32,000 nt of DNA from Aeropyrum pernix K1 (GTDB lineage Archaea; Thermoproteota; Thermoprotei_A; Sulfolobales; Acidilobaceae): NCBI RefSeq assembly GCF_000011125.1, contig NC_000854.2:420001-452000 (forward strand), read 5' to 3'. Both the position numbers and the translations under genes were made by a program. Of the stretch, positions 1-26,722 are shown in pieces. Within the stretch, counting starts at the first letter, position 1, and the number at the start of each line of letters is the position of its first letter. Below the pieces are notes generated by a model that saw nothing but the letters and a program-made list of their open reading frames with translations, did not search any database and was not told where the DNA came from.

Positions 1-3000
1 TATGGGGCTTATCCTGAGCTCCACTTTCCCGGGCTCGTCGACGGTGAAGGTGAATGTCGTGTCCACCCTGTAGAAGGACTGGCCGGCCTCGGGGGTTAGC
101 CTGGCCTGGTAGGTCCCCGGCGGGAGGGAGAGGAGGGCTTTACCCCTGACCACGGTCTCCACGCTATAGCCGAACCCCCCTTCGGGGGCCTGCCTCTCCA
201 GCTCGACGATGTAGGGGAACCCTATCGGCTCGCCGGTTAGGGCGTCGAGGAGCCAGAGCTCCACGGTGAACCTCCTGTACTCTACCGTTAGTACGCCGGG
301 GAGGAGCGCGCCCTCCTGGGTCACGGTCAGCCTGAGCTGCGTGTCTGTTAGGAGCGTGTTCTCCTCGAGAATTTTAACCTCGGCTATGTAGCTTCCAGGC
401 CTGACGCCCTCAAGCCTCAGTATAGGGCCCTCGCCCCGGGCCCTCAGCTCGAGGGGGAGGCTGGTATGTCTAAGGATAAGCTCCACCTCCTCCTCAACTG
501 GGTTGCCGTCTGGATCCGCAAGCCTTATAGCCACCCCGAACACTATGGGCTCCATCTCGACCTCCAGACTAGCGTCCCCCCAGATTTCCAGCGTTGTGCT
601 CGCGGGCTTGAAGCCCAGTGCCCTCACCTCCAGGGTCGCCAGCCCGGGGGGCAGCTGGAGCACCGCCTCCCCGCCTATCCCCTCAACCTCGCCCTCCAGC
701 TCGCCGAAGGGGCCCGAGTATATGTAGGCTACCGAGAACTCGGGGAGCCTAACTGAGAACTCCTTGTCGACAGCAGCTATCTTGACAGCGGCGAGCGGCG
801 GCTTCAAAACCACCTCAACGCCGCCACCCTCCTCCGGCACCACTATGCTGCCCGCGTCAACCGCCACCTCAACACCGGCTATCGAAACCCTGTACTCGGC
901 CCTGTAGACGCCGGGCCTGAGCCTGGCCTCGCCGCCGCCCTGGCTTATCTCAACCTCGAAAGGCCTCTCCTCCTCTATGGAAGCGTGGTCCAGGTAGAGG
1001 GCGCCCCATAGCACCGGCACCCTAGACCCGCCGACATCTGCTGAAACTGTGAACGCGACGTCCACCTTGAGAGGCTCTATGGGGATGTAGACTGTCCCGG
1101 GGGAGCTTATGGCGGCCTCAACGGTGGACCCCGGGTAGCCCTCGGCTGACACCTCCAGCGTGTAGACGCCCTCGGGCAGCACCGCTCTCTCGGGCAGCGT
1201 GAACTCCAGGGGCTCCTCTAAGGTAACGCCGTTGAACGCTATTAGAACTGCCCTGGCACCCTCTATCACCCCCCTCTCAACGCCGAGGTCCTGGTCGTAG
1301 CCCACGAGGTCGACGGTGTAGGCCTTAGGCTTTATCGATATAGACACTGCAGTCGTCTCCTCCCCTATGAATGCTCTCGAGCCGCTTACGGAGCTGCCTG
1401 CAGCGGCCTCTATTATGTACGAGCCGGCCCTCACGCTGGCCACTGCTGAGCCCGTTTCGTCGGCAACCACGGAAACAGGGTCCACTCCCAGGGCTTCTAG
1501 CACGGGGTCGTCGGGCCTCAGGGTCACCGAGGCCAGCCCGGCGGGGGATGGTGGGAGATCCACTTTCGAGGAGCCTATTATAGCGGTGGAGTGGGAATAG
1601 TAGACGTTAACCTCCACCTCCACTACCACAGGGTCGAGCGTTATTGTTGCGAAAACCCTGTCCTGCGCCAGAGTCAGGCTGTACAGGCTCGGCCTATAGT
1701 AGCCGGGCAGCTCGGCCTCGAGGGTGTAGCTGCCGAAGGGCAGCCTTACCAGGGCTGTGCCCCCCTCCACCTGGAGGGTCTTCTGGGATGACTGGCTGTA
1801 CCCGTGCCACGTTATCCTGAGTAGGGCTGAGGGGAGCTCGACGCCCAGGTCCGAGTCGAGCAGGGCTACCTCTAGCTCGCCGTAGATAGGCTTCAAGCCG
1901 AGTTTAACCTGGACACCGCTCCGGCTAGCCTTGAAAAGGTCTATCTCAAGCCTGGCGCCCTCAGTGTAGGGGTGTGTGACGGTGATCTCGTAAACGCCGG
2001 GTCTCAGCAGGAACACCGCCCTACCCTGACTGTCTGTTGTCTGCACCTCGCTCGCCACCTCCACCGGCGTCTCCAGCGGTGTCGCCACTACGAGGGCGTC
2101 TCCAACCCCCCCGACAGCGACGCCTGTGGGGTCGTTGTAGACAGCCTCCACCAAAAGGGGTATCTTGACCGGCTTTAGCGAAAGCGTAACCGACTCTCCA
2201 GCACCCCGCTCGAGGGACAAGCTGGCCTCCGTGTCCTCGTAGTAGCCCTCCAGCGACGATACCAGGATCCTGTAGAGGCCCTCGGGGGCCTCTAGGGAGA
2301 AGCTACTAGAGCGTGTCACGAAGCTCCGCGACTCCCCGGTGAGGAGGTAGGTTAGGGTTACTGTGAAGCCCCCGGGAGCGTCAACCCCCAGCTCGCCGTC
2401 TATAAGCCTGAGGGAGAGGCTCGAGGCCCCGGCGGGGAGGGGTATCTCGAGGGGGCCGGGGGAGAGTATCTCCACGCCGCTGTAGACCGTCTTGCCTAGA
2501 ATGTGGTGCTCCACCTCAACTCTGTAGACGCCGCTCCTGAGTGTTACCTGGGCCTCGCCCTCCTCCCCCGTGTCAACCTCCACCCTGTACCCTAGGCTCG
2601 GCTCCTCCAGCGTGAAGGCTATCCTAGCCCCCTTAATGCTGCCGCCGAAGAGGCCCGTGGGGTCGCTCAACACCGCCCTAACGGTTACCTCGTTGTACGC
2701 GGGCTCCATGAGCACGGTGACTAGCGAGGCAGCCCGCCCCACCTCCGCCTGGGCTTCGGCGGGGCTGTAGCCAGGAGCCTCAACCCTTATGATGTATGAT
2801 CCCGGGGGGAGGGGGATCCTGACGCTGTCGCCCGGCTCCGCAACCCGGGCGCTCCGTCCTGTGGGCGCGGTTATCTCCACCGAGCTGGGCTTGACCTGGA
2901 ACGCCACCCCCGCCTGGTATGCCTCCGCGTCGTAAACCACTATGTCAAGCGGGTACAGGCTAAGCACCGCCTCAACCGTGAACGGCCCCAGCCCCCAGGC

Positions 3001-5475
3001 GGCAACGCTCCCCTCGACCCTCGACACCACCTCCGAGGAGCCGTCAACGCTGTACTCAACCCCGCTCCAGAGTATGGCCGTCGCCCTCCCATCATCCCCG
3101 GTTACGGTAGCGACGGGCAGGGGGTCGGGTGTGTAGCCGAGGTCCTCAGTGGCGGCCTGGGATGGTGCTAGGGTCAGCTCCACCCCCCCTACGGGGCCTG
3201 AGTAGAGATCGTACGCCACCCTGTACTCGGGGCTCGGGGGCGTGGCGGGCACTACAGCCTCCACCACAACCTCCCTTAGGGCGACCTCAATGCTGTCTAG
3301 TATGAGGGGCTGGAGGACCTCCACCTCCCTGTAGAGCTTGCCCAAGCCCGGCAGCTCGACCTCTATAGTATAGTCTCCCCGGGGGACGTAGAGGGTTATG
3401 GAGCCCCTCTCCCACACCTCCTCGTCCACGGCATAGACCTCGCCCCCTGGGCCACGTATAGCCGCTCTGGAGCCGCCGCCCAGGCCCAGATCTCCGGGGC
3501 CGACCTCCCGGGCTCCCCCAACCGTTTCAAGCACAACCCTGAAGTCCAGTATGATTGGGTTCAGGTCGAACCCCGGGCTCTCGAACGTGTATATGGAGCC
3601 GCCGCCCAGGGAGGCGATCACCGCGGGCTCGGCTGTGACGCTGACTATAACGGGGTTATCCAGCCCCGTCTCCACCCCCTGGAACCCGGGGAGGTTCCTC
3701 CATAGGGGCTCCCACCTCCCAACATCCACGGCCTGGAGGAGGCCCTGCTGGCTAGCCACTATTATGTGTGTCTCGAGGTTTAGTATGGAGGTTACGGGGC
3801 TCTCGTCCACCGAGAGGGACCGGGACACTGTGTAGAGCCCTGTGTCCGGCCTATACTTTAGCATGTAGACGTGGCCGCTGGAGGTGCCAACGTATATGAC
3901 ACCTCCCCCCGAGGCTATCTCCACCTCCGTGGGCGCGCCCCCCAGGAATATGGACTGGGGGGCCGGCTTGCCGGAGGCCGGGTAGCCGTTGTCGTCGAGG
4001 TAGTATATGTGGAGGAAGCCCTGGGGGCTGCCCACCAGGAGCAGCTTGGAGAAGTCCTCGAACACCGGGTTCACAGGAGTGTAGACCTCAGCCACCGTAG
4101 CACCCTCGAGGCCGCCGCCCCTTAGGTCCTCGGGCATGGGGAGCCAGGCCATCCACGTGTCGGCGACATAGTCGAACCCTGCCTGGCTGCTCTCCAGAGT
4201 CATGCCCAGCAGTGGCTGGAGCGTCCTCACCCCCGGCTCCAGGCCTAGTATGTCCATGCACGACTCGAGGCTGTCGGCATCGCTCACCAGATCCATCACG
4301 ACTATGTCAAGGTCCACGCTGGAGCCTGGGGGCGGGTCTAGGGTCTCCTCCGCCGCGTAGCATACTGTGCTTACGAGCCTCTCGTTCCCCTGCTCGTCTA
4401 CTAGGTACGTCTCTTCAGTGTAGATAAACACGAGGGTCTGGTCGGAGGCGGGTATAAATGCGTCGAGGACCTCGCTTGGCAGCACGGCAAGACCCGTCTC
4501 CTCGTCGACATAGCCCGCCTCCCCCTCAAGACCCGACCAGCTCGGCTGCACTAGGATGCGGAGGCCCTCCGCCGGGGTTGAAGCCATGTATAGGGTGTAC
4601 CTCGTCAGCACCCCCCTCTCGCTGTCGAGTATCTCCTGGGGAGTCGCGGGAAGTATAGCCCCGGAGGGTGTCCTGTAGAACAGGAGGCCCGAGACCCGGG
4701 CGTCGAGGCCCTCGTAGTATGAGTCAGCGGTGTTGGAGAGGGTGGAGCCGTTCTGCAGCGAGCCGAACACCAGGTAGGCTGTCGAGCCCAGGCTCCACCG
4801 GCCCCCCTGGAGGACTATCTTGTCGCCCAGCACAGCCGAGAAGGGCGGGGAGTGGAAGCCCTTCTCAACCCCCCCGCCGCCTGTGGGGCTGAACTCGACC
4901 CACCCCTCCTCTGTGGGGTCTGCGAAGTACGCAGCCCCACCTCCATCAACCACCACTAACCTTGGGCTGTCTCCCCCGCTCCACACTAGGAGGCTGGTTA
5001 CGCCTAGCCTGGAGGCTGTGTAGAAGTCGGCCCTCACGCTGGGGTTGTCAAGGCTTACGACCGCCACTTCTCCCGTGGAGGTGCCGACCGCCGCCCAGGA
5101 GCCTGTGGAGCCGTCTACCGCGAGCTCCACCGGGTCGCCGACCAGGGCCTGGCTCCAGGATAGCCTCCTAGACTCAAGGTCGACACCCATAATCAGGCTC
5201 CCGAGCCCCGGCGCGGAGCCGGCCGCCACCAGGAGGCCCCTGCCCTCGGAGTACGCCGAGAGCTGGACCGCAACACCCCCGGGCAAGCTATAGCCCCTAA
5301 GCCCGTACACCCTGGTGTAGAACCACTCCAGCTCCTCGCCGACCAGAAGGGCCTGCTGGGGGCTTTCGCCTGGTGCGGCGGAGTAGAGTGGCGGCGATAC
5401 CGCCAGGGCCAGTATAGCAAGCATCGCGAGAGCAGGTAGGAGGCGTATGGGCCATGGCGAGGCGTGTATATTCAA
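1..5475 (-). CDS. giant secreted/cell-surface protein, C-terminus beyond window edge: signal peptide, ~600-aa propeller-like region, then at least 12 tandem ~85-100-aa PEGA / carboxypeptidase-regulatory-like beta-sandwich modules
   Basis: Absent from the ORF track because it has no stop inside the window. My translation of the minus strand (codon triplets at plus positions 1-3, 4-6, ...) is open from the TAA at 5484-5482 down to position 1. I checked it base by base at 1-240, 601-660, 1129-1180, 1681-1740, 2761-2820, 3541-3600, 3841-3900, 4201-4260 and 5400-5484. No other minus ORF of 60 aa or more is listed across 1-5192. Start is TTG 5475 (MNIHASPWPIRLLPALAMLAILALAVSPPLYSAAPG, signal-peptide shaped) or ATG 5424. 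The strand motif P-x-G-x-Y-x-h-x-V...G-Y recurs about every 255-310 nt. Confidence 0.8.
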   Translation of the reverse strand, partial: MNIHASPWPIRLLPALAMLAILALAVSPPLYSAAPGESPQQALLVGEELEWFYTRVYGLRGYSLPGGVAVQLSAYSEGRGLLVAAGSAPGLGSLIMGVDLESRRLSWSQALVGDPVELAVDGSTGSWAAVGTSTGEVAVVSLDNPSVRADFYTASRLGVTSLLVWSGGDSPRLVVVDGGGAAYFADPTEEGWVEFSPTGGGGVEKGFHSPPFSAVLGDKIVLQGGRWSLGSTAYLVFGSLQNGSTLSNTADSYYEGLDARVSGLLFYRTPSGAILPATPQEILDSERGVLTRYTLYMASTPAEGLRILVQPSWSGLEGEAGYVDEETGLAVLPSEVLDAFIPASDQTLVFIYTEETYLVDEQGNERLVSTVCYAAEETLDPPPGSSVDLDIVVMDLVSDADSLESCMDILGLEPGVRTLQPLLGMTLESSQAGFDYVADTWMAWLPMPEDLRGGGLEGATVAEVYTPVNPVFEDFSKLLLVGSPQGFLHIYYLDDNGYPASGKPAPQSIFLGGAPTEVEIASGGGVIYVGTSSGHVYMLKYRPDTGLYTVSRSLSVDESPVTSILNLETHIIVASQQGLLQAVDVGRWEPLWRNLPGFQGVETGLDNPVIVSVTAEPAVIASLGGGSIYTFESPGFDLNPIILDFRVVLETVGGAREVGPGDLGLGGGSRAAIRGPGGEVYAVDEEVWERGSITLYVPRGDYTIEVELPGLGKLYREVEVLQPLILDSIEVALREVVVEAVVPATPPSPEYRVAYDLYSGPVGGVELTLAPSQAATEDLGYTPDPLPVATVTGDDGRATAILWSGVEYSVDGSSEVVSRVEGSVAAWGLGPFTVEAVLSLYPLDIVVYDAEAYQAGVAFQVKPSSVEITAPTGRSARVAEPGDSVRIPLPPGSYIIRVEAPGYSPAEAQAEVGRAASLVTVLMEPAYNEVTVRAVLSDPTGLFGGSIKGARIAFTLEEPSLGYRVEVDTGEEGEAQVTLRSGVYRVEVEHHILGKTVYSGVEILSPGPLEIPLPAGASSLSLRLIDGELGVDAPGGFTVTLTYLLTGESRSFVTRSSSFSLEAPEGLYRILVSSLEGYYEDTEASLSLERGAGESVTLSLKPVKIPLLVEAVYNDPTGVAVGGVGDALVVATPLETPVEVASEVQTTDSQGRAVFLLRPGVYEITVTHPYTEGARLEIDLFKASRSGVQVKLGLKPIYGELEVALLDSDLGVELPSALLRITWHGYSQSSQKTLQVEGGTALVRLPFGSYTLEAELPGYYRPSLYSLTLAQDRVFATITLDPVVVEVEVNVYYSHSTAIIGSSKVDLPPSPAGLASVTLRPDDPVLEALGVDPVSVVADETGSAVASVRAGSYIIEAAAGSSVSGSRAFIGEETTAVSISIKPKAYTVDLVGYDQDLGVERGVIEGARAVLIAFNGVTLEEPLEFTLPERAVLPEGVYTLEVSAEGYPGSTVEAAISSPGTVYIPIEPLKVDVAFTVSADVGGSRVPVLWGALYLDHASIEEERPFEVEISQGGGEARLRPGVYRAEYRVSIAGVEVAVDAGSIVVPEEGGGVEVVLKPPLAAVKIAAVDKEFSVRLPEFSVAYIYSGPFGELEGEVEGIGGEAVLQLPPGLATLEVRALGFKPASTTLEIWGDASLEVEMEPIVFGVAIRLADPDGNPVEEEVELILRHTSLPLELRARGEGPILRLEGVRPGSYIAEVKILEENTLLTDTQLRLTVTQEGALLPGVLTVEYRRFTVELWLLDALTGEPIGFPYIVELERQAPEGGFGYSVETVVRGKALLSLPPGTYQARLTPEAGQSFYRVDTTFTFTVDEPGKVELRISPI

Positions 5476-5491
5476 CCTAGGTTAACCCCTT

Positions 5492-12768: not shown

Positions 12769-13542
12769 ATGTCAAGCGGCGTCGGCATAGTCACCAGGAT
12801 ACAGAGCGTCTCCCCGGCGATAAGCGCAGTGCTGCTGGACCACCCGGGAGTCTACCTGAGGACGGTTAGGGGTGCCTCCGCTATATACGGTGGGGAGTAT
12901 ACTGGGATGCCCGGCTTCCGTTTCACCGTCGGCAGGATAGGAGACGCCAGCCTCCTCATAGGCCTCATACCACCCTACCCCCAGGCCGTCGCCGAGGCCG
13001 TCTACGAGCTCTTCATACTAGGTATAAGGAATGTGATAACGATAACCCGCGGCGCCAGGCTCGGAAGGAGGGTTGAGGAGGGTGAGAGGGTGGTTCTGGC
13101 TAAGGCCGCCATACCCCTGGACGGGGTCTCCCAGAGGATAGCCCCGCCCGGCACGCCCCTCCTCGCCTCTGCCGAGCTACTCAGAGGCCTCCTCGCCTAC
13201 GCCGAGCTGGGCGTTCTGAAAGGCTCTGTTAACCCGGGAACCACCGTCACCATGCAGAGCCTGAGGATGGCCTGGAGCTACGACGACGCGGAGGAGTATA
13301 TAGGCTTGAGGGACGTGAGGGCTGCCGACACGGTGACCGCGCCCCTCTACGCTCTCCAATACCAGTTCGAGAGGCTCAACGCCCTCTCAGTCGTCGTGGC
13401 GGAGAGGCCCCTCACCCCCACGCCCAGGCCCGTGGAGACTGATGCGAGAGCCCTGGAGAGGCATGACGAGAGGGAGGCGGACCTCATATCAAAGATCCTC
13501 ATAGCCGCCGTCGAGACTATAAAGGCCGTGGCCGGGGAGTGA
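12769..13542 (+). CDS. nucleoside phosphorylase superfamily-like protein (PNP_UDP_1-like, divergent)
   Basis: 257 aa. The layout G..Y.G..v.v.....G...a......eL...Gi.nvI.i..g..L.......Ge.VV...AI.LDGVS resembles uridine/purine phosphorylases, but the canonical Gly-rich phosphate loop is degenerate. Confidence 0.5.
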   Translation: MSSGVGIVTRIQSVSPAISAVLLDHPGVYLRTVRGASAIYGGEYTGMPGFRFTVGRIGDASLLIGLIPPYPQAVAEAVYELFILGIRNVITITRGARLGRRVEEGERVVLAKAAIPLDGVSQRIAPPGTPLLASAELLRGLLAYAELGVLKGSVNPGTTVTMQSLRMAWSYDDAEEYIGLRDVRAADTVTAPLYALQYQFERLNALSVVVAERPLTPTPRPVETDARALERHDEREADLISKILIAAVETIKAVAGE

Positions 13543-20384: not shown

Positions 20385-21779
20385 TTACGGCTGGAGGCTA
20401 AAACTCTCCCCCACACCCCCCGGGGGCTCAGGAGGGCTTGGGCCGGGGGAGAATGCCCACTCAAGCTTCATAGGGCGGGGCGGCCTCCGGCCCGCGGGCC
20501 TCCTGCCCGGCGGTGCTGTAAGGTGCCTTAGCCTGCCCTCCCTGGGCGTGTAGACGCCCGGCTGCAGCGCCCGGGGCACCGGGGTCTCGAGGGGCCTGGC
20601 TTCTCGCGAGGCGTAGCCGCAGCGGGGGCACCTGTAGCCCCTCCCCCTGCCCGCGCTCTCCATCCTGGCCCCGCAGCGGGGGCATAGGGGCGAGTGCCTC
20701 TCGTAGACTGGGGCCAGGCGCCGCACCACCAGCTTGTCCACAGCCACTGTCCAGAGGCCTCGGGGCCTGTAGGGCCTGACGCTCCCCATAGCCTCGACAG
20801 AGTCGCCGGGGGCCAGGAGCCTGGCAACCCTGTTCAGGGGGGATGCCTCCCTGTAGAATACGAGGTCGGCCTCGCCCTCCCCCGTCGAGGCCCTCACCAC
20901 AACGTGGCCCCCAGGGAGTGTTTGGGGCGTGCCGAGGACCTCAGCCTCTACAGTCACGTAGGAGTAGGGGTAGATCCTCCTCTCAAGCCCCCGGGGGGCG
21001 TCTGTATGCTGGTTGCTGCGGTATAGAACCCAGAAGTGGGGCTCCTCGCAGAGGGCCTCAGAGTACCTGGGCAGCAGGTGTGGGCAGTCACCCCGGAAGC
21101 CGGCCAGCACCGGGTCGGGGCCCGCGGGGGCGGCTGCAACCCTCCCCTCAGCCATGTCTATATTGTTGAAGGTGCAGGGCGGTAGGGTGGACTCAACTTT
21201 GACAGCGGCCTCCCAGTCTACGCACCTCGCCGCCCCCCACGCCTCCGGCCTCCTGTAGGCCACAAGCTCCCACGTGTAATCCTCCGCCGGCCCCAGGGCA
21301 GCTAGAGACGCTGCCGCACCTATGATACCCCGCCCCCCGTAAACCCTGCCCCCCTCCTTCTCCACAGCACCCGCCGCAGACTCCCTGTCAAGAACCCCGG
21401 CTAGAGCCCTCTTGTACAGAGACTCTAGCCGGGGCCTGTAGGGGTCTCCCACCAGTACTGCCATGCCAGGCCCCTTACCCGCCTCACTTGGCCTCCCGCC
21501 GGTGTAGTCCCACATGAGCTGGAGGGCAGTCTCGACAGCGTCTAAAGCCTCGTCCTCGCCCCGGGCCCAGAGCCTGAGGACTACAGCCGCGTTGCCCCTG
21601 GTCTTCCACGGTATACCCGGGTTTAGCCTGGCCAGTATGGGGTAGTCGGCCAGGGTGTAGCCGCCCCTCCTGGCCAGAGTGTGTAGGAGGAGGCCTGCGA
21701 AGTGTGTTGTACAGCCTCCCCCCCTAAAATCTACGTCGTCGAAGCCTATGTTCAACAGGAGGATGCCCGGCCCCCCCAC
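20385..21779 (-). CDS. tiaS: tRNA(Ile2) 2-agmatinylcytidine synthetase TiaS
   Basis: IGFDDVD..GGCTTH, RLNPGIPWKTRGNAAV, GRGIIGAAA, ELVAYR, and a C-terminal zinc ribbon CPRCGARMESAGRGRGYRCPRCG. The order matches TiaS (DUF1743 plus OB plus Zn ribbon). Confidence 0.85.
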   Translation of the reverse strand: MGGPGILLLNIGFDDVDFRGGGCTTHFAGLLLHTLARRGGYTLADYPILARLNPGIPWKTRGNAAVVLRLWARGEDEALDAVETALQLMWDYTGGRPSEAGKGPGMAVLVGDPYRPRLESLYKRALAGVLDRESAAGAVEKEGGRVYGGRGIIGAAASLAALGPAEDYTWELVAYRRPEAWGAARCVDWEAAVKVESTLPPCTFNNIDMAEGRVAAAPAGPDPVLAGFRGDCPHLLPRYSEALCEEPHFWVLYRSNQHTDAPRGLERRIYPYSYVTVEAEVLGTPQTLPGGHVVVRASTGEGEADLVFYREASPLNRVARLLAPGDSVEAMGSVRPYRPRGLWTVAVDKLVVRRLAPVYERHSPLCPRCGARMESAGRGRGYRCPRCGYASREARPLETPVPRALQPGVYTPREGRLRHLTAPPGRRPAGRRPPRPMKLEWAFSPGPSPPEPPGGVGESFSLQP

Positions 21780-21793
21780 AGCTCCGGAGGGGT

Positions 21794-22057
21794 CTACCCC
21801 TTGTTCTTAACCCTCCTCGTCACTATCACCATGGTAAGGGTCATCTTGACCCCGTCCACCTTCCTTATCTTACCGGTTATAGTCTCCCTCAGCTGGTCCA
21901 TCGTTGGGGCCTCGACTAGGGCTATTATTTCGTATATCCCGTATACCATGAACACCTCCTTAACCTCGGGCATCTCCAGCAGCTTGTTAAACACTTCATC
22001 CTCCTTCCCTACGTTGACGTTGATGGCGACAAGCGCTTCCGGCATCTCGAACACCAT
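21794..22057 (-). CDS. stand-alone Lrp/AsnC-type RAM (ligand-binding) domain protein
   Basis: 87 aa. A.INVNVGKEDEV...L...PEVKEVF.VYG.YEIIALVEA..MD.L ....I matches the AsnC_trans_reg fold pattern. There is no HTH. Confidence 0.75.
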   Translation of the reverse strand: MVFEMPEALVAINVNVGKEDEVFNKLLEMPEVKEVFMVYGIYEIIALVEAPTMDQLRETITGKIRKVDGVKMTLTMVIVTRRVKNKG

Positions 22058-22124
22058 ACACCATCTAATACGATATTACGGGTTTAAAACCTTATAGTGG
22101 ACATAATCTTGAATTCTGGTAGAG

Positions 22125-22481
22125 GTGCGGTTTGTAGAGATGAGCGGAGAAGCAGGTGTGAGGCAGTGCTGTCTCGACCCGTCCACGTTCTCCCATAGGG
22201 AGGGCGATATAGCCAGGGCCATGGGCCTTAGCGGGGAGGATGCGTCCCGCGTGAGGAAGTATGTCGAGGACCTGCTGAAACAGAGTCCACCGCCCAAGGT
22301 GAGCGAGGCGCTGGAGAGAATATGGGCTAGGGACTGCGGGAACCTGTCTCTCGAGCAGAGAATATACGCCACCTTCATACTAGGGGTGAGCATATACGGC
22401 AGCATGGTTCAGGAGTATCTCATAAGGTCTATGAGTAGTAGGGAGGCTAAGGGTGCCTCAGGTGGCAGGAGGTCGCCCTAG
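22125..22481 (+). CDS. hypothetical protein, 118 aa
   Basis: Gene-like codon usage. Overlaps the hisS start by 29 nt. No motif recognised. Confidence 0.4.
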   Translation: MRFVEMSGEAGVRQCCLDPSTFSHREGDIARAMGLSGEDASRVRKYVEDLLKQSPPPKVSEALERIWARDCGNLSLEQRIYATFILGVSIYGSMVQEYLIRSMSSREAKGASGGRRSP

Positions 22482-23769
22482 ACCCCCCCGGGGGTTCAGG
22501 GACTTTCCACCCGAAGTCATGATACTCAGGAAGAGGCTCCTCTCCAGGCTCGAGAGAGTTTTCGAGAGCTACGGCTTCGACCCGCTGGACACGCCGGCGG
22601 TGGAGTATTGGGAGACCCTCTCCGGTAAGTATGGTGAGGAGGCGGAGTCGAGGCTGATATGGAGGTTCCAGGACCCGTGGAGCGGGAGGTGGTACGCGCT
22701 AAGGTACGACCTCACTGTCCCCCTAGCCAGGTTCGTGGCCTCAAACCCGGGGCTGCCGATGCCTTTCAAGAGGTACCACATAGGGAAGGTTTGGAGGCAC
22801 GAGGAGCCGCAGAAGGGGAGGTACAGGGAGTTCGTCCAGTGCGACGCAGACATAGTCGGCAGCCCCTACCCGGAGGCGGACGCGGAGATTGTAAGCCTTG
22901 CTGTGGACAGTATCGACGCCCTGGGGCTCCCAGGGTTTAGGGTTAGGGTTAACGATAGGCGCCTCCTCGCCGGGGTTTTCGAGGAGGAGCTGGGGTTTGA
23001 CAACCCCCTCCCCATCTACAGGGCTATAGACAAGCTGGATAAGATAGGTGTGGAGGGTGTTAGGAGGGAGCTAGAGAGGCTGGGGCTCCCGGGATCCACC
23101 GTTGAAAGGATCATGGAGATTATCTCCTGGAGGGGGAGGCCCGGCGAGGTCCTGGAGTCCGTCAGGAGGGGTTACGGCTCCAACGAGAAGGTTAGGGAGG
23201 CGCTTGACCATCTAGAGGAGATGCTCTCCCTCGCCGACGATAAGAGGGTAGAGCTTGACATGAGCCTCGTTAGGGGCCTCGACTACTACACCGGCCCTAT
23301 ACTCGAGGTAGTCCTAGACGAGCCGAGGATAGGTAGTGTAGCGGGGGGAGGGAGGTACGACGGGCTTGTGGGGATGTTCGCGGGGAGGGATATACCGGCC
23401 ACTGGCGTGAGCATAGGAATAGAGAGGATCATAGACGCTGGCCTCGAGCTCGGGGTTTACAGTCTAGACGTGAAGACAGTAGCCCAGGTTGCCGTCGTCG
23501 TGCTAGACCGGAGGTACTACAGGTACGCCTGGGAGGCGGCCCGCATACTCAGGAGGGGTGGGCTAAACGTTAGGATAGACCTCTCCCGGGCCAGCGGCCA
23601 GGTTCAGAGGAGGAAGGCCTCGAGGCTGGGCATACCCGTCTTGGCTTTCGTGGGGGCCAAGGAGGCTGAGGGCGGGTTCCTAACGCTCTACAGCGCCGCG
23701 AAGGGTGAGAGGGTTGCAGTGCCGCTGGGGGAGGCTGTGAAGGCGGTGGAGAGGCTCCTCCCCTCCTAA
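22453..23769 (+). CDS. hisS: histidyl-tRNA synthetase
   Basis: PRGFRDFPPE, YGF.P.DTP..E, YHIGKVWRHE.PQKGRYREF.Q.D, GGGRYD (class II motifs). Confidence 0.95.
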   Translation: MPQVAGGRPRPPRGFRDFPPEVMILRKRLLSRLERVFESYGFDPLDTPAVEYWETLSGKYGEEAESRLIWRFQDPWSGRWYALRYDLTVPLARFVASNPGLPMPFKRYHIGKVWRHEEPQKGRYREFVQCDADIVGSPYPEADAEIVSLAVDSIDALGLPGFRVRVNDRRLLAGVFEEELGFDNPLPIYRAIDKLDKIGVEGVRRELERLGLPGSTVERIMEIISWRGRPGEVLESVRRGYGSNEKVREALDHLEEMLSLADDKRVELDMSLVRGLDYYTGPILEVVLDEPRIGSVAGGGRYDGLVGMFAGRDIPATGVSIGIERIIDAGLELGVYSLDVKTVAQVAVVVLDRRYYRYAWEAARILRRGGLNVRIDLSRASGQVQRRKASRLGIPVLAFVGAKEAEGGFLTLYSAAKGERVAVPLGEAVKAVERLLPS

Positions 23770-24122
23770 CCCGCCGAAAGCCTCCTCCTAACAGTGACCG
23801 CCAGCCCGGTGGAGTAGACCTCCAATACAACCTGCCTTACCTCCCCCGGCTCCACTGAAACCCTCCTGAACCTGCCGCTCGAGACCGCCGCCTTAAGCCC
23901 CCTCAAATGCTTACACCCCCAACCCCCCTTCACAAGGCTCCCCGCCATGCTGGGGCAGGAGCAGTACAGCCCCTCCACAAGTATATAGTCCCTGGACTCG
24001 CCCAGGTACACCCAAACCCCCTGCCCCCCGCCCGGCTCAAGCCTAACGAACCTACCGGAATGGCCGAGGACCTCGTCGGGCTCCAGAGCCAGGTACTCCA
24101 GGCAAGCGTCCCTCACCCCCAA
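23766..24122 (-). CDS. small SWIM zinc-finger-like protein
   Basis: YCSCPSMAGSLVKGGWGCKHL fits CxC-x(n)-CxH. The TTG start lies 1 nt after the rpiA stop. Confidence 0.55.
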   Translation of the reverse strand: MGVRDACLEYLALEPDEVLGHSGRFVRLEPGGGQGVWVYLGESRDYILVEGLYCSCPSMAGSLVKGGWGCKHLRGLKAAVSSGRFRRVSVEPGEVRQVVLEVYSTGLAVTVRRRLSAG

Positions 24123-24123
24123 T

Positions 24124-24837
24124 CTAGACCGCCCTCCCCCTGTAGGGGCCTAGAACCCTGTAGCCGCAGCTGGACAGCCCCACGACAATATAGTCAGCCA
24201 GCCCGAGGAACAGGCCCGTCTCCCTCACGCCAGGCACATTCCTGAGCATAGACTCCAACCCCCGAGGGTCCTCCAGGGGGCCTGTGAGTAGGTCCACTAT
24301 AACCCCGCCCCAGTCGCTGACCACAGGCCCCCTTTTACCCGGCGAGGTCCTCACCCGCGGGTTAAGGCCCAGCTCCTCCAGGCTTGCGAGAACCATCGAG
24401 ACGAACCCGGGCTCTACCTCCACAGGAACGGGCGTCTTCTCCCCCAGCCTCCCCACGAGCCTGTCCTCGCCGACTATGAATATGTTTAGCTTCGACCTGG
24501 AGGAAAGTATCTTCTCGCCAAGCAGAGCCCCCCCGCCCCCCTTCACCATATACCCTCTCCCGGGCTCTGCCTCGTCCGCCCCGTCAACATAAACGTTAAC
24601 CCCCCGGTATACACGGGGGTCACCCACACTCCACCCCAAACCAGCCAGCTCAACAGCAGTCTCGAAACTACTGGGCACAGCCACCCCCGGCTCCACCCCA
24701 CGGGCGCTGGCCTCGCGGAGAAACCTCATCACAGTCCTACCAGTACCCACGCCGAGAACGCCGAGCTCCCCGCCAATCCTGCCTAGAAGGTCGAGCGCTC
24801 CCCGGGCGGCCTCATCCATAGGATCACAACCACCCAC
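24124..24837 (-). CDS. rpiA: ribose-5-phosphate isomerase A
   Basis: GVGTGRTV, DGADE and KGGGGALLGEKI motifs. Start is GTG 24837 or ATG 24819. Confidence 0.9.
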   Translation of the reverse strand: MGGCDPMDEAARGALDLLGRIGGELGVLGVGTGRTVMRFLREASARGVEPGVAVPSSFETAVELAGLGWSVGDPRVYRGVNVYVDGADEAEPGRGYMVKGGGGALLGEKILSSRSKLNIFIVGEDRLVGRLGEKTPVPVEVEPGFVSMVLASLEELGLNPRVRTSPGKRGPVVSDWGGVIVDLLTGPLEDPRGLESMLRNVPGVRETGLFLGLADYIVVGLSSCGYRVLGPYRGRAV

Positions 24838-24916
24838 AACCTACACCCGAAACACCAGTAGGATGGAGGCTCAAAATTAAGCTAGAAAGCGGGTCCAGAT
24901 AGCTAGACTTAGGATG

Positions 24917-24938
24917 CTCCACAGGAAACGGAGGGGTC
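24917..24938 (+). repeat. ORB-like box a: CTCCACAGGAAACGGAGGGGTC
   Basis: Perfect 22/22 match to 25197-25218. Internal dyad CTCC/GGAG followed by GGGG. Confidence 0.75.
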
Positions 24939-24990
24939 CTTATAAACCCCCGGCAACCACGCCACGCCGCACCCCGCAGGAAAGCCCCAC

Positions 24991-25011
24991 ACCCCCCAGG
25001 TTCCTCTGGAG
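24991..25011 (-). repeat. ORB-like box b (minus strand CTCCAGAGGAACCTGGGGGGT, followed by GTGGGGC)
   Basis: 17/21 identity to box a by hand alignment, in inverted orientation. With its GATG flank it forms a 15-bp inverted repeat (1 mismatch) with 24913-24927. Confidence 0.6.
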
Positions 25012-25035
25012 CATCAGAAGCGTATACTCCTCCCG

Positions 25036-25133
25036 AATAGTGCTCTTGAAGAATGCCAATATAATGATACAAAAACCCAGTTTTAAACAAATCAAGCTAG
25101 AAACAAACAAAGACACACTATAATCCAGAACTG
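25036..25133. other. AT-rich putative duplex unwinding element
   Basis: I count 31 G+C in 98 nt (~68% A+T), with runs such as AATATAATGATACAAAAA, TTTTAAACAAATCAA and AAACAAACAAAGA. This is the most AT-rich stretch in the window. Confidence 0.6.
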
Positions 25134-25147
25134 CACAGCCTGAGAGG

Positions 25148-25168
25148 ATCCAGCGGAAAACAGGGGGT
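25148..25168 (+). repeat. ORB-like box c (ATCCAGCGGAAAACAGGGGGT, followed by GTGGGGGC)
   Basis: 14/21 identity to box a. It shares the TCCAG..GGAA..GGGGGTGTGGGGC layout with box b, on the opposite strand. Confidence 0.5.
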
Positions 25169-25196
25169 GTGGGGGCTTAGTGTGTCAGCTCGCCGT

Positions 25197-25218
25197 CTCC
25201 ACAGGAAACGGAGGGGTC
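25197..25218 (+). repeat. ORB-like box d: CTCCACAGGAAACGGAGGGGTC
   Basis: Perfect copy of box a, 280 nt away, in the same orientation. Confidence 0.75.
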
Positions 25219-25312
25219 GTATACCGGGGGGTTAACAACCTGCGGGAAGCGCATCCACCCCCACCCCCAACCATGAGGAGCCAGAACTAGCTGTCAACCA
25301 TCACTATGCATA

Positions 25313-25656
25313 CCCGGGAGGCGGCGCCGGCCATAACCCGCCTTCTGTACTTCGGCGGCATTGGGCTAAGCGGTCTCCCCCCGGGCTTCGCGCGGCCCTC
25401 ACCGCCCGGGGGCCTTGCTCCGCCGGGGGCGGCCGTTTCACCGCATCCCCGGGGTTCCTCTGCGGTTTGCTGCCGCCCTGTTGCCAGGGCGGCCTAGCCG
25501 CGTCCTCGACACGCCCCGGGGCCGTGTCGTTTCTGTGCCGTTGCCACGGGTTTCACCCGTGCCCCTTGCGGGGCCCGGCCGCCGCGGGGAGGGCGGAGTT
25601 TCCTCAGCCCCCCTGGCTGGGGGGCCGTGGGCCGCCGGCCGGCGCCGCCTCCCGGG
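25313..25656 (-). ncRNA. rnpB: RNase P RNA (archaeal type A-like)
   Basis: Read on the minus strand. A perfect 20-bp terminal helix joins CCCGGGAGGCGGCGCCGGCC (25656-25637) to GGCCGGCGCCGCCTCCCGGG (25332-25313). GAGGAAACUCCGCCC (25605-25591) resembles CR-I GAGGAAAGUCC. There are GGUGAAACCC and GGUGAAACGG elements. GUACAGAAGGCGGGUUAUGG (25350-25331) resembles CR-V ACAGAA..GG.UUA. The preceding GCCCCCC-AGCCA-GGGGGGC forms a P3-like hairpin. Confidence 0.85.
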
Positions 25657-25708
25657 TTTACTCATTATTTTCCGCCGGGTTTTTACTGTTGGTTTTTGGG
25701 TTGGGGGT

Positions 25709-26722
25709 GTGCTTGCTAAGAAGTACCCGTTTCTCCTCGGTCTTGATAGGGTTTTGGAGCTTGTGACGGGGTTTAGGGGTGAGGCTGCTCGCCGTGTGTT
25801 GGCTGGTGATGAGGATCTTGTTGGGCTAGGTTTTAGGAGGGCTGTGGCGGCTGTTGAGGGCTGGCTTGACTATCCTTTTGCCGATACTGTTGAGGGCGAG
25901 GTTGCGAGCTTCTACTTGGGCTTGGCTATAGCCTATAGGGCTGGGCCTGCCGCGGTGTCTAGGGTTGTTGCCGGCGAGTATCTCAGGGCTTCGAGGCTGT
26001 TGGCCGGCGAGCCTGGGGAGGTCGCCTCGGGTATACTGGGGGGGCTGGGGTTTCCCGTTGAGCGTGGCGGGCTGAGTGTACCCTGGGTTGTGGATAGGCG
26101 TGGCGTTGTTATGCTCCCTCTGGGCTGGAGGATGGGGGTGGATGTTTTCCTGAGGCTCTCCGCCGCCGACGAGTCGAGCCCTGAGCTGAGGCTGGCTAAC
26201 CAGATGCTCCTATCTGGGAGTGTCTACCTTAGCGACGCTAGGCTTCGGGCTCTGGCGTCGGCAGCGTCGAGGCTGGCTATAGAGTCTAGGGTCTCTGAGG
26301 CCGCCTCCCTGGAGTCTGAGGCTGTGGAGAGGTATGCCAGGCATCTCGCCGCGCTGGCCGAGGGGGGGCTCCCGTTTATACCGGAGGCGCTTCCCCAGTG
26401 CATCAAGAATGTTTTCGCAAAGGCTGTTGGGGGGGAGAGGCTGGGCTGGCTGGAGCTCTACCTGGCCCTGGTCTTCCTGGCCAGGATAAGGGCTGGGCCG
26501 GATGCGGTGGAGGAGCTGTTGACCCCTAGCTTGGGAGAGAGGGTTGCAAGGCTGTTGGCTAGGGTTTACAGCCAGGCCCCGCCCGCCGACCACCAGCTAC
26601 CCCCCTGCGAGGTCCTCGCAGCCTCAGGGGTGTGCAGATGCCGCGGGAGCCTCCTCTCCGAGTATAGGAGGAGTGTGAGGAGCCTCCTCGGCCTGCCCGA
26701 CCGGGGGGCGGGAAGGAGATAA
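25709..26722 (+). CDS. priL: DNA primase large subunit PriL (Fe-S domain)
   Basis: LPQCIKNVFAKAVGGERLGWLELYLALVFLARIRAGPDAVEELL resembles the PriL PPCI...G..L.h..R..l..FL motif. Four Cys (PQC, PPC, CRC) could bind a 4Fe-4S cluster. The track ORF starts at 25415, but that part overlaps rnpB; the GTG at 25709 (VLAKKYPFLLGL) is the first plausible start past it. Confidence 0.65.
   Translation: MLAKKYPFLLGLDRVLELVTGFRGEAARRVLAGDEDLVGLGFRRAVAAVEGWLDYPFADTVEGEVASFYLGLAIAYRAGPAAVSRVVAGEYLRASRLLAGEPGEVASGILGGLGFPVERGGLSVPWVVDRRGVVMLPLGWRMGVDVFLRLSAADESSPELRLANQMLLSGSVYLSDARLRALASAASRLAIESRVSEAASLESEAVERYARHLAALAEGGLPFIPEALPQCIKNVFAKAVGGERLGWLELYLALVFLARIRAGPDAVEELLTPSLGERVARLLARVYSQAPPADHQLPPCEVLAASGVCRCRGSLLSEYRRSVRSLLGLPDRGAGRR

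Follow-up and report, generated by a model that had tools for sequence, protein, structure and literature searches.

The four-box ORB locus between rpiA and rnpB of Aeropyrum pernix K1, almost certainly the chromosomal origin oriC1

What is the role of the DNA between rpiA and the RNase P RNA gene (rnpB) of Aeropyrum pernix K1, which holds no credible reading frame and carries a perfect 22-nt direct repeat? An earlier note on the window, the 32-kb stretch of DNA analysed here, proposed an Orc1/Cdc6-type replication origin in which four origin recognition boxes (ORBs) surround a duplex unwinding element (DUE) in the order ORB-ORB-DUE-ORB-ORB, and it regarded the absence of a nearby initiator gene as a surprise. 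Here, we present a computational analysis of this locus, comprising its boxes and spacer, its counterparts in other genomes, its neighbouring genes and flanking elements, and its relation to the origins described for A. pernix and other archaea.

Four boxes and an AT-rich spacer

The gap measures 484 bp from the start of rpiA to the 3′ end of rnpB, slightly more than the 475 bp estimated earlier, and contains only short open reading frames (ORFs) of 58-88 aa which overlap the boxes. Direct reading of the region and a repeat search both recovered the 22-mer CTCCACAGGAAACGGAGGGGTC in exactly two copies, located at 24917-24938 and 25197-25218 and both on the plus strand. Within the window, to which this count refers, no third copy exists at up to three mismatches. 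Matches to CTCCACAGGAAACGGAGGGGTC were found in none of 100 dinucleotide-preserving shuffles, and 0 are expected by chance. The left copy represents the outer left box, ORB1, and lies 79 bp upstream of the GTG start codon of rpiA; the right copy is the outer right box, ORB4. Two degenerate boxes are located between them and correspond to those of the earlier note in position, strand and degree of matching. ORB2, the inner left box (24991-25011, minus strand, CTCCAGAGGAACCTGGGGGGT), is inverted, matches at 17 of 21 positions and possesses an extended G-string that reaches 24985. ORB3, the inner right box (25148-25168, plus strand, ATCCAGCGGAAAACAGGGGGT), is the most degenerate of the four and matches at 14 of 21 positions. 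Taken together with their extended G-strings, ORB2 and ORB3 form a 31-nt inverted repeat with 77% complementarity, the arms of which lie at 24985-25015 and 25144-25174. In origins of this class, a G-string follows a short dyad (TCCA-N-GGAA) in each box, and the four boxes share this design. In the inner pair, the sequence shows that the dyad halves point towards the AT-rich spacer, with the G-strings on the outer sides. A scan of the whole window for the TCCA / GAA / GGGG core returned ORB1-ORB4 only.

The spacer between the inner boxes (25012-25147), with a core at 25036-25133, is read here as the DUE. The A+T content of the core amounts to 68.4% compared to 38% for the 32-kb window, which bears out the earlier estimate of about 68%, and the GC content falls to 0.33-0.39 in 100-nt windows across the spacer region. 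The arrangement of an AT-rich element flanked by the inverted boxes ORB2(-) and ORB3(+) is a further characteristic of the origin class. Inside the spacer, the motif ATGATACAAAAA at 25064-25075 is conserved in a four-way alignment of the window, two Aeropyrum MAGs and an Acidilobaceae MAG. In this alignment, the boxes appear as islands of identity in diverged and indel-rich spacers, which is the footprint expected of protein-binding sites and argues against the short ORFs in the gap. The length of the gap, its short ORFs, its unconserved spacers and the absence of an Rfam family also agree with the non-coding intergenic location of origins. A structured RNA was considered for the region and rejected, as an Rfam search at E<=1 over 24780-25360 yielded nothing beyond the rnpB end and a miRNA match without meaning. 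The GC skew over the 32 kb follows the gene strand and is uninformative at this scale.

Counterparts of the locus in other genomes

The pattern CTCCASAGGAAMCNGRGGGGT was searched in 185,579 species genomes (one per GTDB species) and gave 33 loci, 28 of which are archaeal, with one or two matches per genome; the genomes of A. pernix K1 and A. camini are not among the sources of these loci. The Thermoprotei loci (n=14) harbor three to six ORB-like boxes each, and three to four of these boxes cluster in a span of a few hundred bp. The bacterial loci (n=5) are unclustered and comprise four singletons and one locus with a second box, at seven mismatches, in a distance of about 740 bp. Identical order and polarity, that is ORB1(+), ORB2(-), a gap of 79-171 bp, ORB3(+) and ORB4(+), were found in ten loci. 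These are the window, an Aeropyrum MAG (L026), Acidilobaceae/Acidilobus MAGs (L011, L013, L030, L032 and L037), Thermoprotei and Desulfurococcales MAGs (L027 and L029) and a Pyrodictiaceae MAG (L010). In all ten, the gap between ORB2 and ORB3 has a higher A+T content than the locus to which it belongs, although the difference is only 3 points in L032. The elements TCCA, GAA and GGGG are invariant in the 40 boxes from these loci, which give the consensus CTCCACAGGAAACAGAGGGGT, and orthologues of the degenerate ORB3 occupy the equivalent relative position in the relatives. ORB1 is located 45-80 bp upstream of the rpiA start in the relatives examined. A four-box module beside rpiA in several Thermoprotei families could aid the annotation of origins in MAGs of uncultured Thermoprotei.

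The far flank of the locus is formed by the 3′ end of TiaS in most relatives and by rnpB and priL in A. pernix K1 and L026. A comparison of window positions 20385-24837 with L032, L013, L037 and L019 places the K1 TiaS gene beyond hisS, on the opposite side of rpiA at a distance of 3 kb. The replacement of the TiaS side by rnpB and priL, together with the position of TiaS beyond hisS in K1, indicates that the region was rearranged locally and that the breakpoint lies immediately beyond ORB4 and the element flanking it.

Boxes of the crenarchaeal type were also observed in other phyla. A Woesearchaeota MAG carries one such box (L016:5202-5222), 365 bp from an Orc1-1-type gene (L016:3602-4837), and in a Methanosarcinales MAG two tandem boxes (L021:923-1029) precede an MCM gene (L021:1763-3796) by about 750 bp. 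In addition, a viral contig from IMG/VR with 33% GC contains a single exact match to CTCCACAGGAAACAGAGGGGT (L039:8991-9011). A viral or plasmid source of the boxes was dismissed, since this match is isolated, belongs to no cluster, is accompanied by no related genes and is consistent with chance.

Neighbouring genes and elements abutting the outer boxes

The neighbours rpiA, RNase P RNA and priL had been named from the sequence by the earlier note, and a Pfam search, an RNA match of 142.8 bits and NCBIfam, respectively, identified all three. The left neighbour rpiA (24124-24837, minus strand; Pfam Rib_5-P_isom_A) encodes ribose-5-phosphate isomerase A and is an exact match to BAA79637.1. The archaeal rnpB gene (25322-25647, minus strand) faces ORB4 with its 3′ end. 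A perfect 21-nt inverted repeat at 25312-25332 and 25637-25657 represents the terminal helix of the RNase P RNA, formed by pairing of the 5′ and 3′ ends, and runs about 10 nt past the Rfam match on either side. The priL gene (25709-26722, plus strand; NCBIfam PriL, E=7.5e-9) codes for a divergent member of the large/regulatory subunits of DNA primase. Its 337-aa product in the window is an exact match to WP_148678930.1 and clusters with the K1 PriL entry BAA79640.1 (395 aa; “putative DNA primase large subunit”). Among the other proteins of the window, AdoHcyase is an exact match to BAA79594.2 and TenA clusters with the K1 entry BAA79642.2 (224 aa). An ORF of more than 1827 aa on the minus strand (1-5481), which runs off the window start and contains CarboxypepD_reg and PEGA repeats, probably encodes a large surface protein.

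Pfam scans of the 20 long ORFs covering the window revealed no Cdc6_C, no Cdc6_lid and no initiator-type AAA+ domain. The Orc1-1-type protein of the Woesearchaeota MAG (Pfam Cdc6_C, 6.5e-32; PDB 2qby_A, 6e-112; 2v1u_A, 5e-104) served as query for tblastn, which detected no Orc1 in the 32-kb window or in any related locus; in the latter, flanks of about 2-6 kb on each side were covered and are free of orc1. The ORF at 12769-13542, with a tblastn match to an Orc1 winged-helix segment at E=0.39, was tried as a WhiP/Cdt1-like or Orc-like candidate and discarded because it looks weakly nucleoside phosphorylase-like instead. The locus thus lacks the adjacent orc1/cdc6 gene which is typical, not obligatory, for archaeal origins. 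The absence itself is as real as the earlier note had it, whereas the surprise is not warranted: the arrangement has already been published for A. pernix, where neither cdc6 gene adjoins an origin according to a passage in PMC5333045, and so it opens no new question.

Two elements abut the outer boxes. Directly after ORB1, the TATA-like sequence TTATAAA is located at 24940-24946, within a segment in which TCCTTATAA (24937-24945) is invariant in five loci, namely the window, L026, L019, L032 and L029. It is probably a TATA box, most likely that of rpiA, and ORC1 bound at the abutting ORB1 may affect transcription of this gene. Directly after ORB4, a conserved element, GTATACCGGGGGGTTAAC, is found at 25219-25236 on the plus strand. 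In the relatives, the element adjacent to ORB4 is the palindrome GTTAACC-GGGG-GGTTAAC with a 7-bp stem, which abuts ORB4 in most related origins (L026:1167-1182, L011:5180-5195, L037:6414-6429, L030:7870-7885, L032:5839-5854 and L019:6607-6622, and also L013 and L029). The TiaS reading frame ends directly at this palindrome in L037, and in L026 the palindrome is positioned just past the 3′ end of rnpB. The hairpin may block transcription that heads towards the origin. We know of no earlier description of this palindrome.

Owing to two changes, the stem is imperfect in K1 and the element equals a second sequence. The latter is a perfect inverted copy of all 18 nt within rpiA (24595-24612) and there codes for the conserved peptide VYRGVN. 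Each of the two 18-nt arms differs from its orthologues at two positions and yet equals the other arm, an identity that looks like the outcome of gene conversion. Several copies of TTAACCGGGGRGTT occur around the origin in Acidilobaceae and were considered as a second, parS-like class of origin-flanking sites. This proposal found no support, as most copies are coding: they specify LTGE[LF] twice in TiaS, VYRGV in RpiA and VNRGVYA in a small ORF, and only the copy adjacent to ORB4 is clearly non-coding.

These features could be combined into one conserved “rpiA-linked” oriC module common to Aeropyrum, Acidilobaceae, Pyrodictiaceae and other Thermoprotei. It would consist of boxes in an asymmetric and fixed polarity (+ - DUE + +), of a TATA-like element by ORB1 that is probably the promoter of rpiA, and of a hairpin directly after ORB4 facing transcription of TiaS or rnpB, with the initiator gene always encoded elsewhere. 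We consider a module of this full extent rather unlikely and put it forward as a tentative generalization; to our knowledge, it has no prior description. If its additional elements were functional, ORC1 occupancy would couple the state of the origin to the supply of ribose-5-phosphate, and read-through transcription would be kept out of the origin by the hairpin.

Assignment to oriC1 and comparison with known origins

A link between the boxes and published DNA came from a double-stranded oligonucleotide, TCTCCACAGGAAACGGAGGGGT, which served as a generic 22-mer probe in a DNA-binding assay unrelated to origins (PMC5376975). It is exactly identical to window positions 25196-25217, and its 5′ T precedes the right-hand copy of the 22-mer only. 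In a full-text literature search for the ORB sequence, this oligonucleotide was the sole match, and a search for “ORB4” together with A. pernix gave no match. TCTCCACAGGAAACGGAGGGGT is probably the ORB4 22-mer of PDB 2V1U, and the authors of the binding assay presumably have links to the laboratory behind that structure. The A. pernix origin described by Grainge 2006 (J Mol Biol 363:355) reportedly contains four ORBs, paired on either side of an A+T-rich DUE, and the window shows exactly this arrangement.

Secondary sources provide the remaining background. In PMC1904270, which cites Grainge 2006, the A. pernix origin is stated to contain ORB repeats and ORC1 to recognize a 22 bp ORB. The ORC1-ORB complex of A. 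pernix has been crystallised (PDB 2V1U) according to reviews, one of which (PMC3089459) describes a minor groove deformed by the initiator-specific motif (ISM), part of the AAA+ domain, beside the contact of the helix-turn-helix (HTH), and a bend in the DNA of about 35 degrees. Specific binding of the initiator to the ORBs of A. pernix oriC1 is credited by secondary sources to Grainge 2006 and Gaudier 2007. Two A. pernix origins were identified by biochemistry and 2D gels, as summarized in passages of PMC4010727 and PMC3269012, and DoriC lists two origins for NC_000854.

The locus is almost certainly oriC1 of the A. pernix K1 chromosome, an Orc1/Cdc6-dependent archaeal origin. This identification is based on the secondary citations, the identity of the organism, the box length of 22 bp and the match of the oligonucleotide. 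The underlying reading as an origin with the layout ORB-ORB-DUE-ORB-ORB, as put forward by the earlier note, is supported by the source of the DNA, A. pernix K1, by the literature on the 22-bp ORB, on 2V1U and on two origins, and by the occurrence of the four-box layout in nine other Thermoprotei genomes. On the basis of the published structure and biochemistry, ORC1 of the Orc1-1 clade, encoded elsewhere on the chromosome, would bind to ORB1(+), ORB2(-), ORB3(+) and ORB4(+) and would contact the boxes through its winged-helix domain and the ISM. Binding would be cooperative, would bend the DNA by about 35 degrees and would alter the topology of the origin. By analogy with Sulfolobus, the inverted inner pair may then direct the loading of MCM and the melting of the duplex to the AT-rich spacer (25012-25147).

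Other functions of the boxes have to be weighed against replication initiation. The boxes might serve mainly as operators of a transcription regulator, or bind ORC1 solely as a repressor, at the rpiA promoter, in which case the locus would not be a firing origin. In all relatives examined, ORB1 precedes rpiA by 45-80 bp, and in five loci the invariant TATA-like TCCTTATAA abuts it; both speak for such a role, and a protein bound to ORB1 would probably affect rpiA transcription for these two reasons. However, the four boxes extend over 300 bp, and the inner two are inverted about a segment of 68% A+T, an architecture that belongs to an origin and not to an operator. The box also matches the pan-archaeal ORB, other phyla have it near an Orc1-1-type gene and near MCM, and PMC4010727 and PMC3269012 report that A. 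pernix oriC1 is active as an origin in vivo. We regard a purely regulatory function as very unlikely; a regulatory side-effect on rpiA is plausible, being compatible with the origin reading and no replacement for it.

Alternatively, the cluster might bind ORC1 and be dormant, or merely a minor origin, in vivo. Dormant origins with ORBs do exist in haloarchaea (PMC4595724), but both A. pernix origins are described as verified by 2D gels (passages in PMC4010727 and PMC3269012) and the module is strongly conserved in relatives, so that this variant appears scarcely credible. There is next to no chance that a dispersed repeat or mobile element gave rise to the 22-mers as its ends or copies, with the AT-rich segment as cargo or insertion scar: two perfect 22-nt copies 280 bp apart and a perfect 18-nt inverted repeat (24595-24612 / 25219-25236) bracketing the region could suggest it, but the 22-mers are in direct and not inverted orientation, no further copy exists in the 32 kb, the 28 archaeal genomes have one or two pattern matches each, the module keeps the same syntenic position beside rpiA across several families, the Pfam scan of the neighbours revealed no transposase or integrase, and the left arm of the 18-nt repeat codes for a conserved RpiA peptide.

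With the assignment to an active oriC1 preferred, the main finding contains nothing new, as both the locus and its lack of an adjacent initiator gene are already known. Minor details without an earlier report are the hairpin next to ORB4, the TATA-like element beside ORB1 and the syntenic placement of the origin relative to rpiA and TiaS. The value of the analysis lies mainly in its use as a positive control, in which a textbook archaeal origin was recovered from raw sequence alone, together with what is probably the 22-bp ORB of the ORC1-DNA crystal structure.

In comparison with the published oriC1 of A. pernix K1 (Grainge et al. 2006; Gaudier et al. 2007 Science 317:1213; Robinson and Bell 2007 PNAS 104:5806), the window agrees in the organism, the 22-bp ORB and the absence of an adjacent cdc6 gene, and no difference is detectable in this comparison via secondary sources. 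The oriC1 of Sulfolobus (Robinson et al. 2004; Samson et al. 2013, PMC3607249) shares ORBs composed of a dyad and a G-string, an initiator of the Orc1-1 clade and inverted ORBs flanking an AT-rich region; a passage in PMC3607249 aligns the A. pernix ORC1-ORB structure to ORB2 of S. islandicus oriC1. According to PMC4010727 and PMC1904270, it differs in its location directly upstream of cdc6-1/orc1-1 and in ORBs of 36 bp, respectively, whereas the window has rpiA and rnpB/priL as neighbours and a box of 22 bp. Similarly, the oriC of Pyrococcus resembles the locus in its ORB and mini-ORB repeats, its AT-rich regions and its inverted ORBs bound by Cdc6/Orc1, as described in part of PMC1904270. 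In contrast to the Pyrococcus origin, which lies immediately upstream of cdc6/orc1 and contains many 13-bp mini-ORBs, the A. pernix locus has four boxes only and would be served by an initiator acting in trans.
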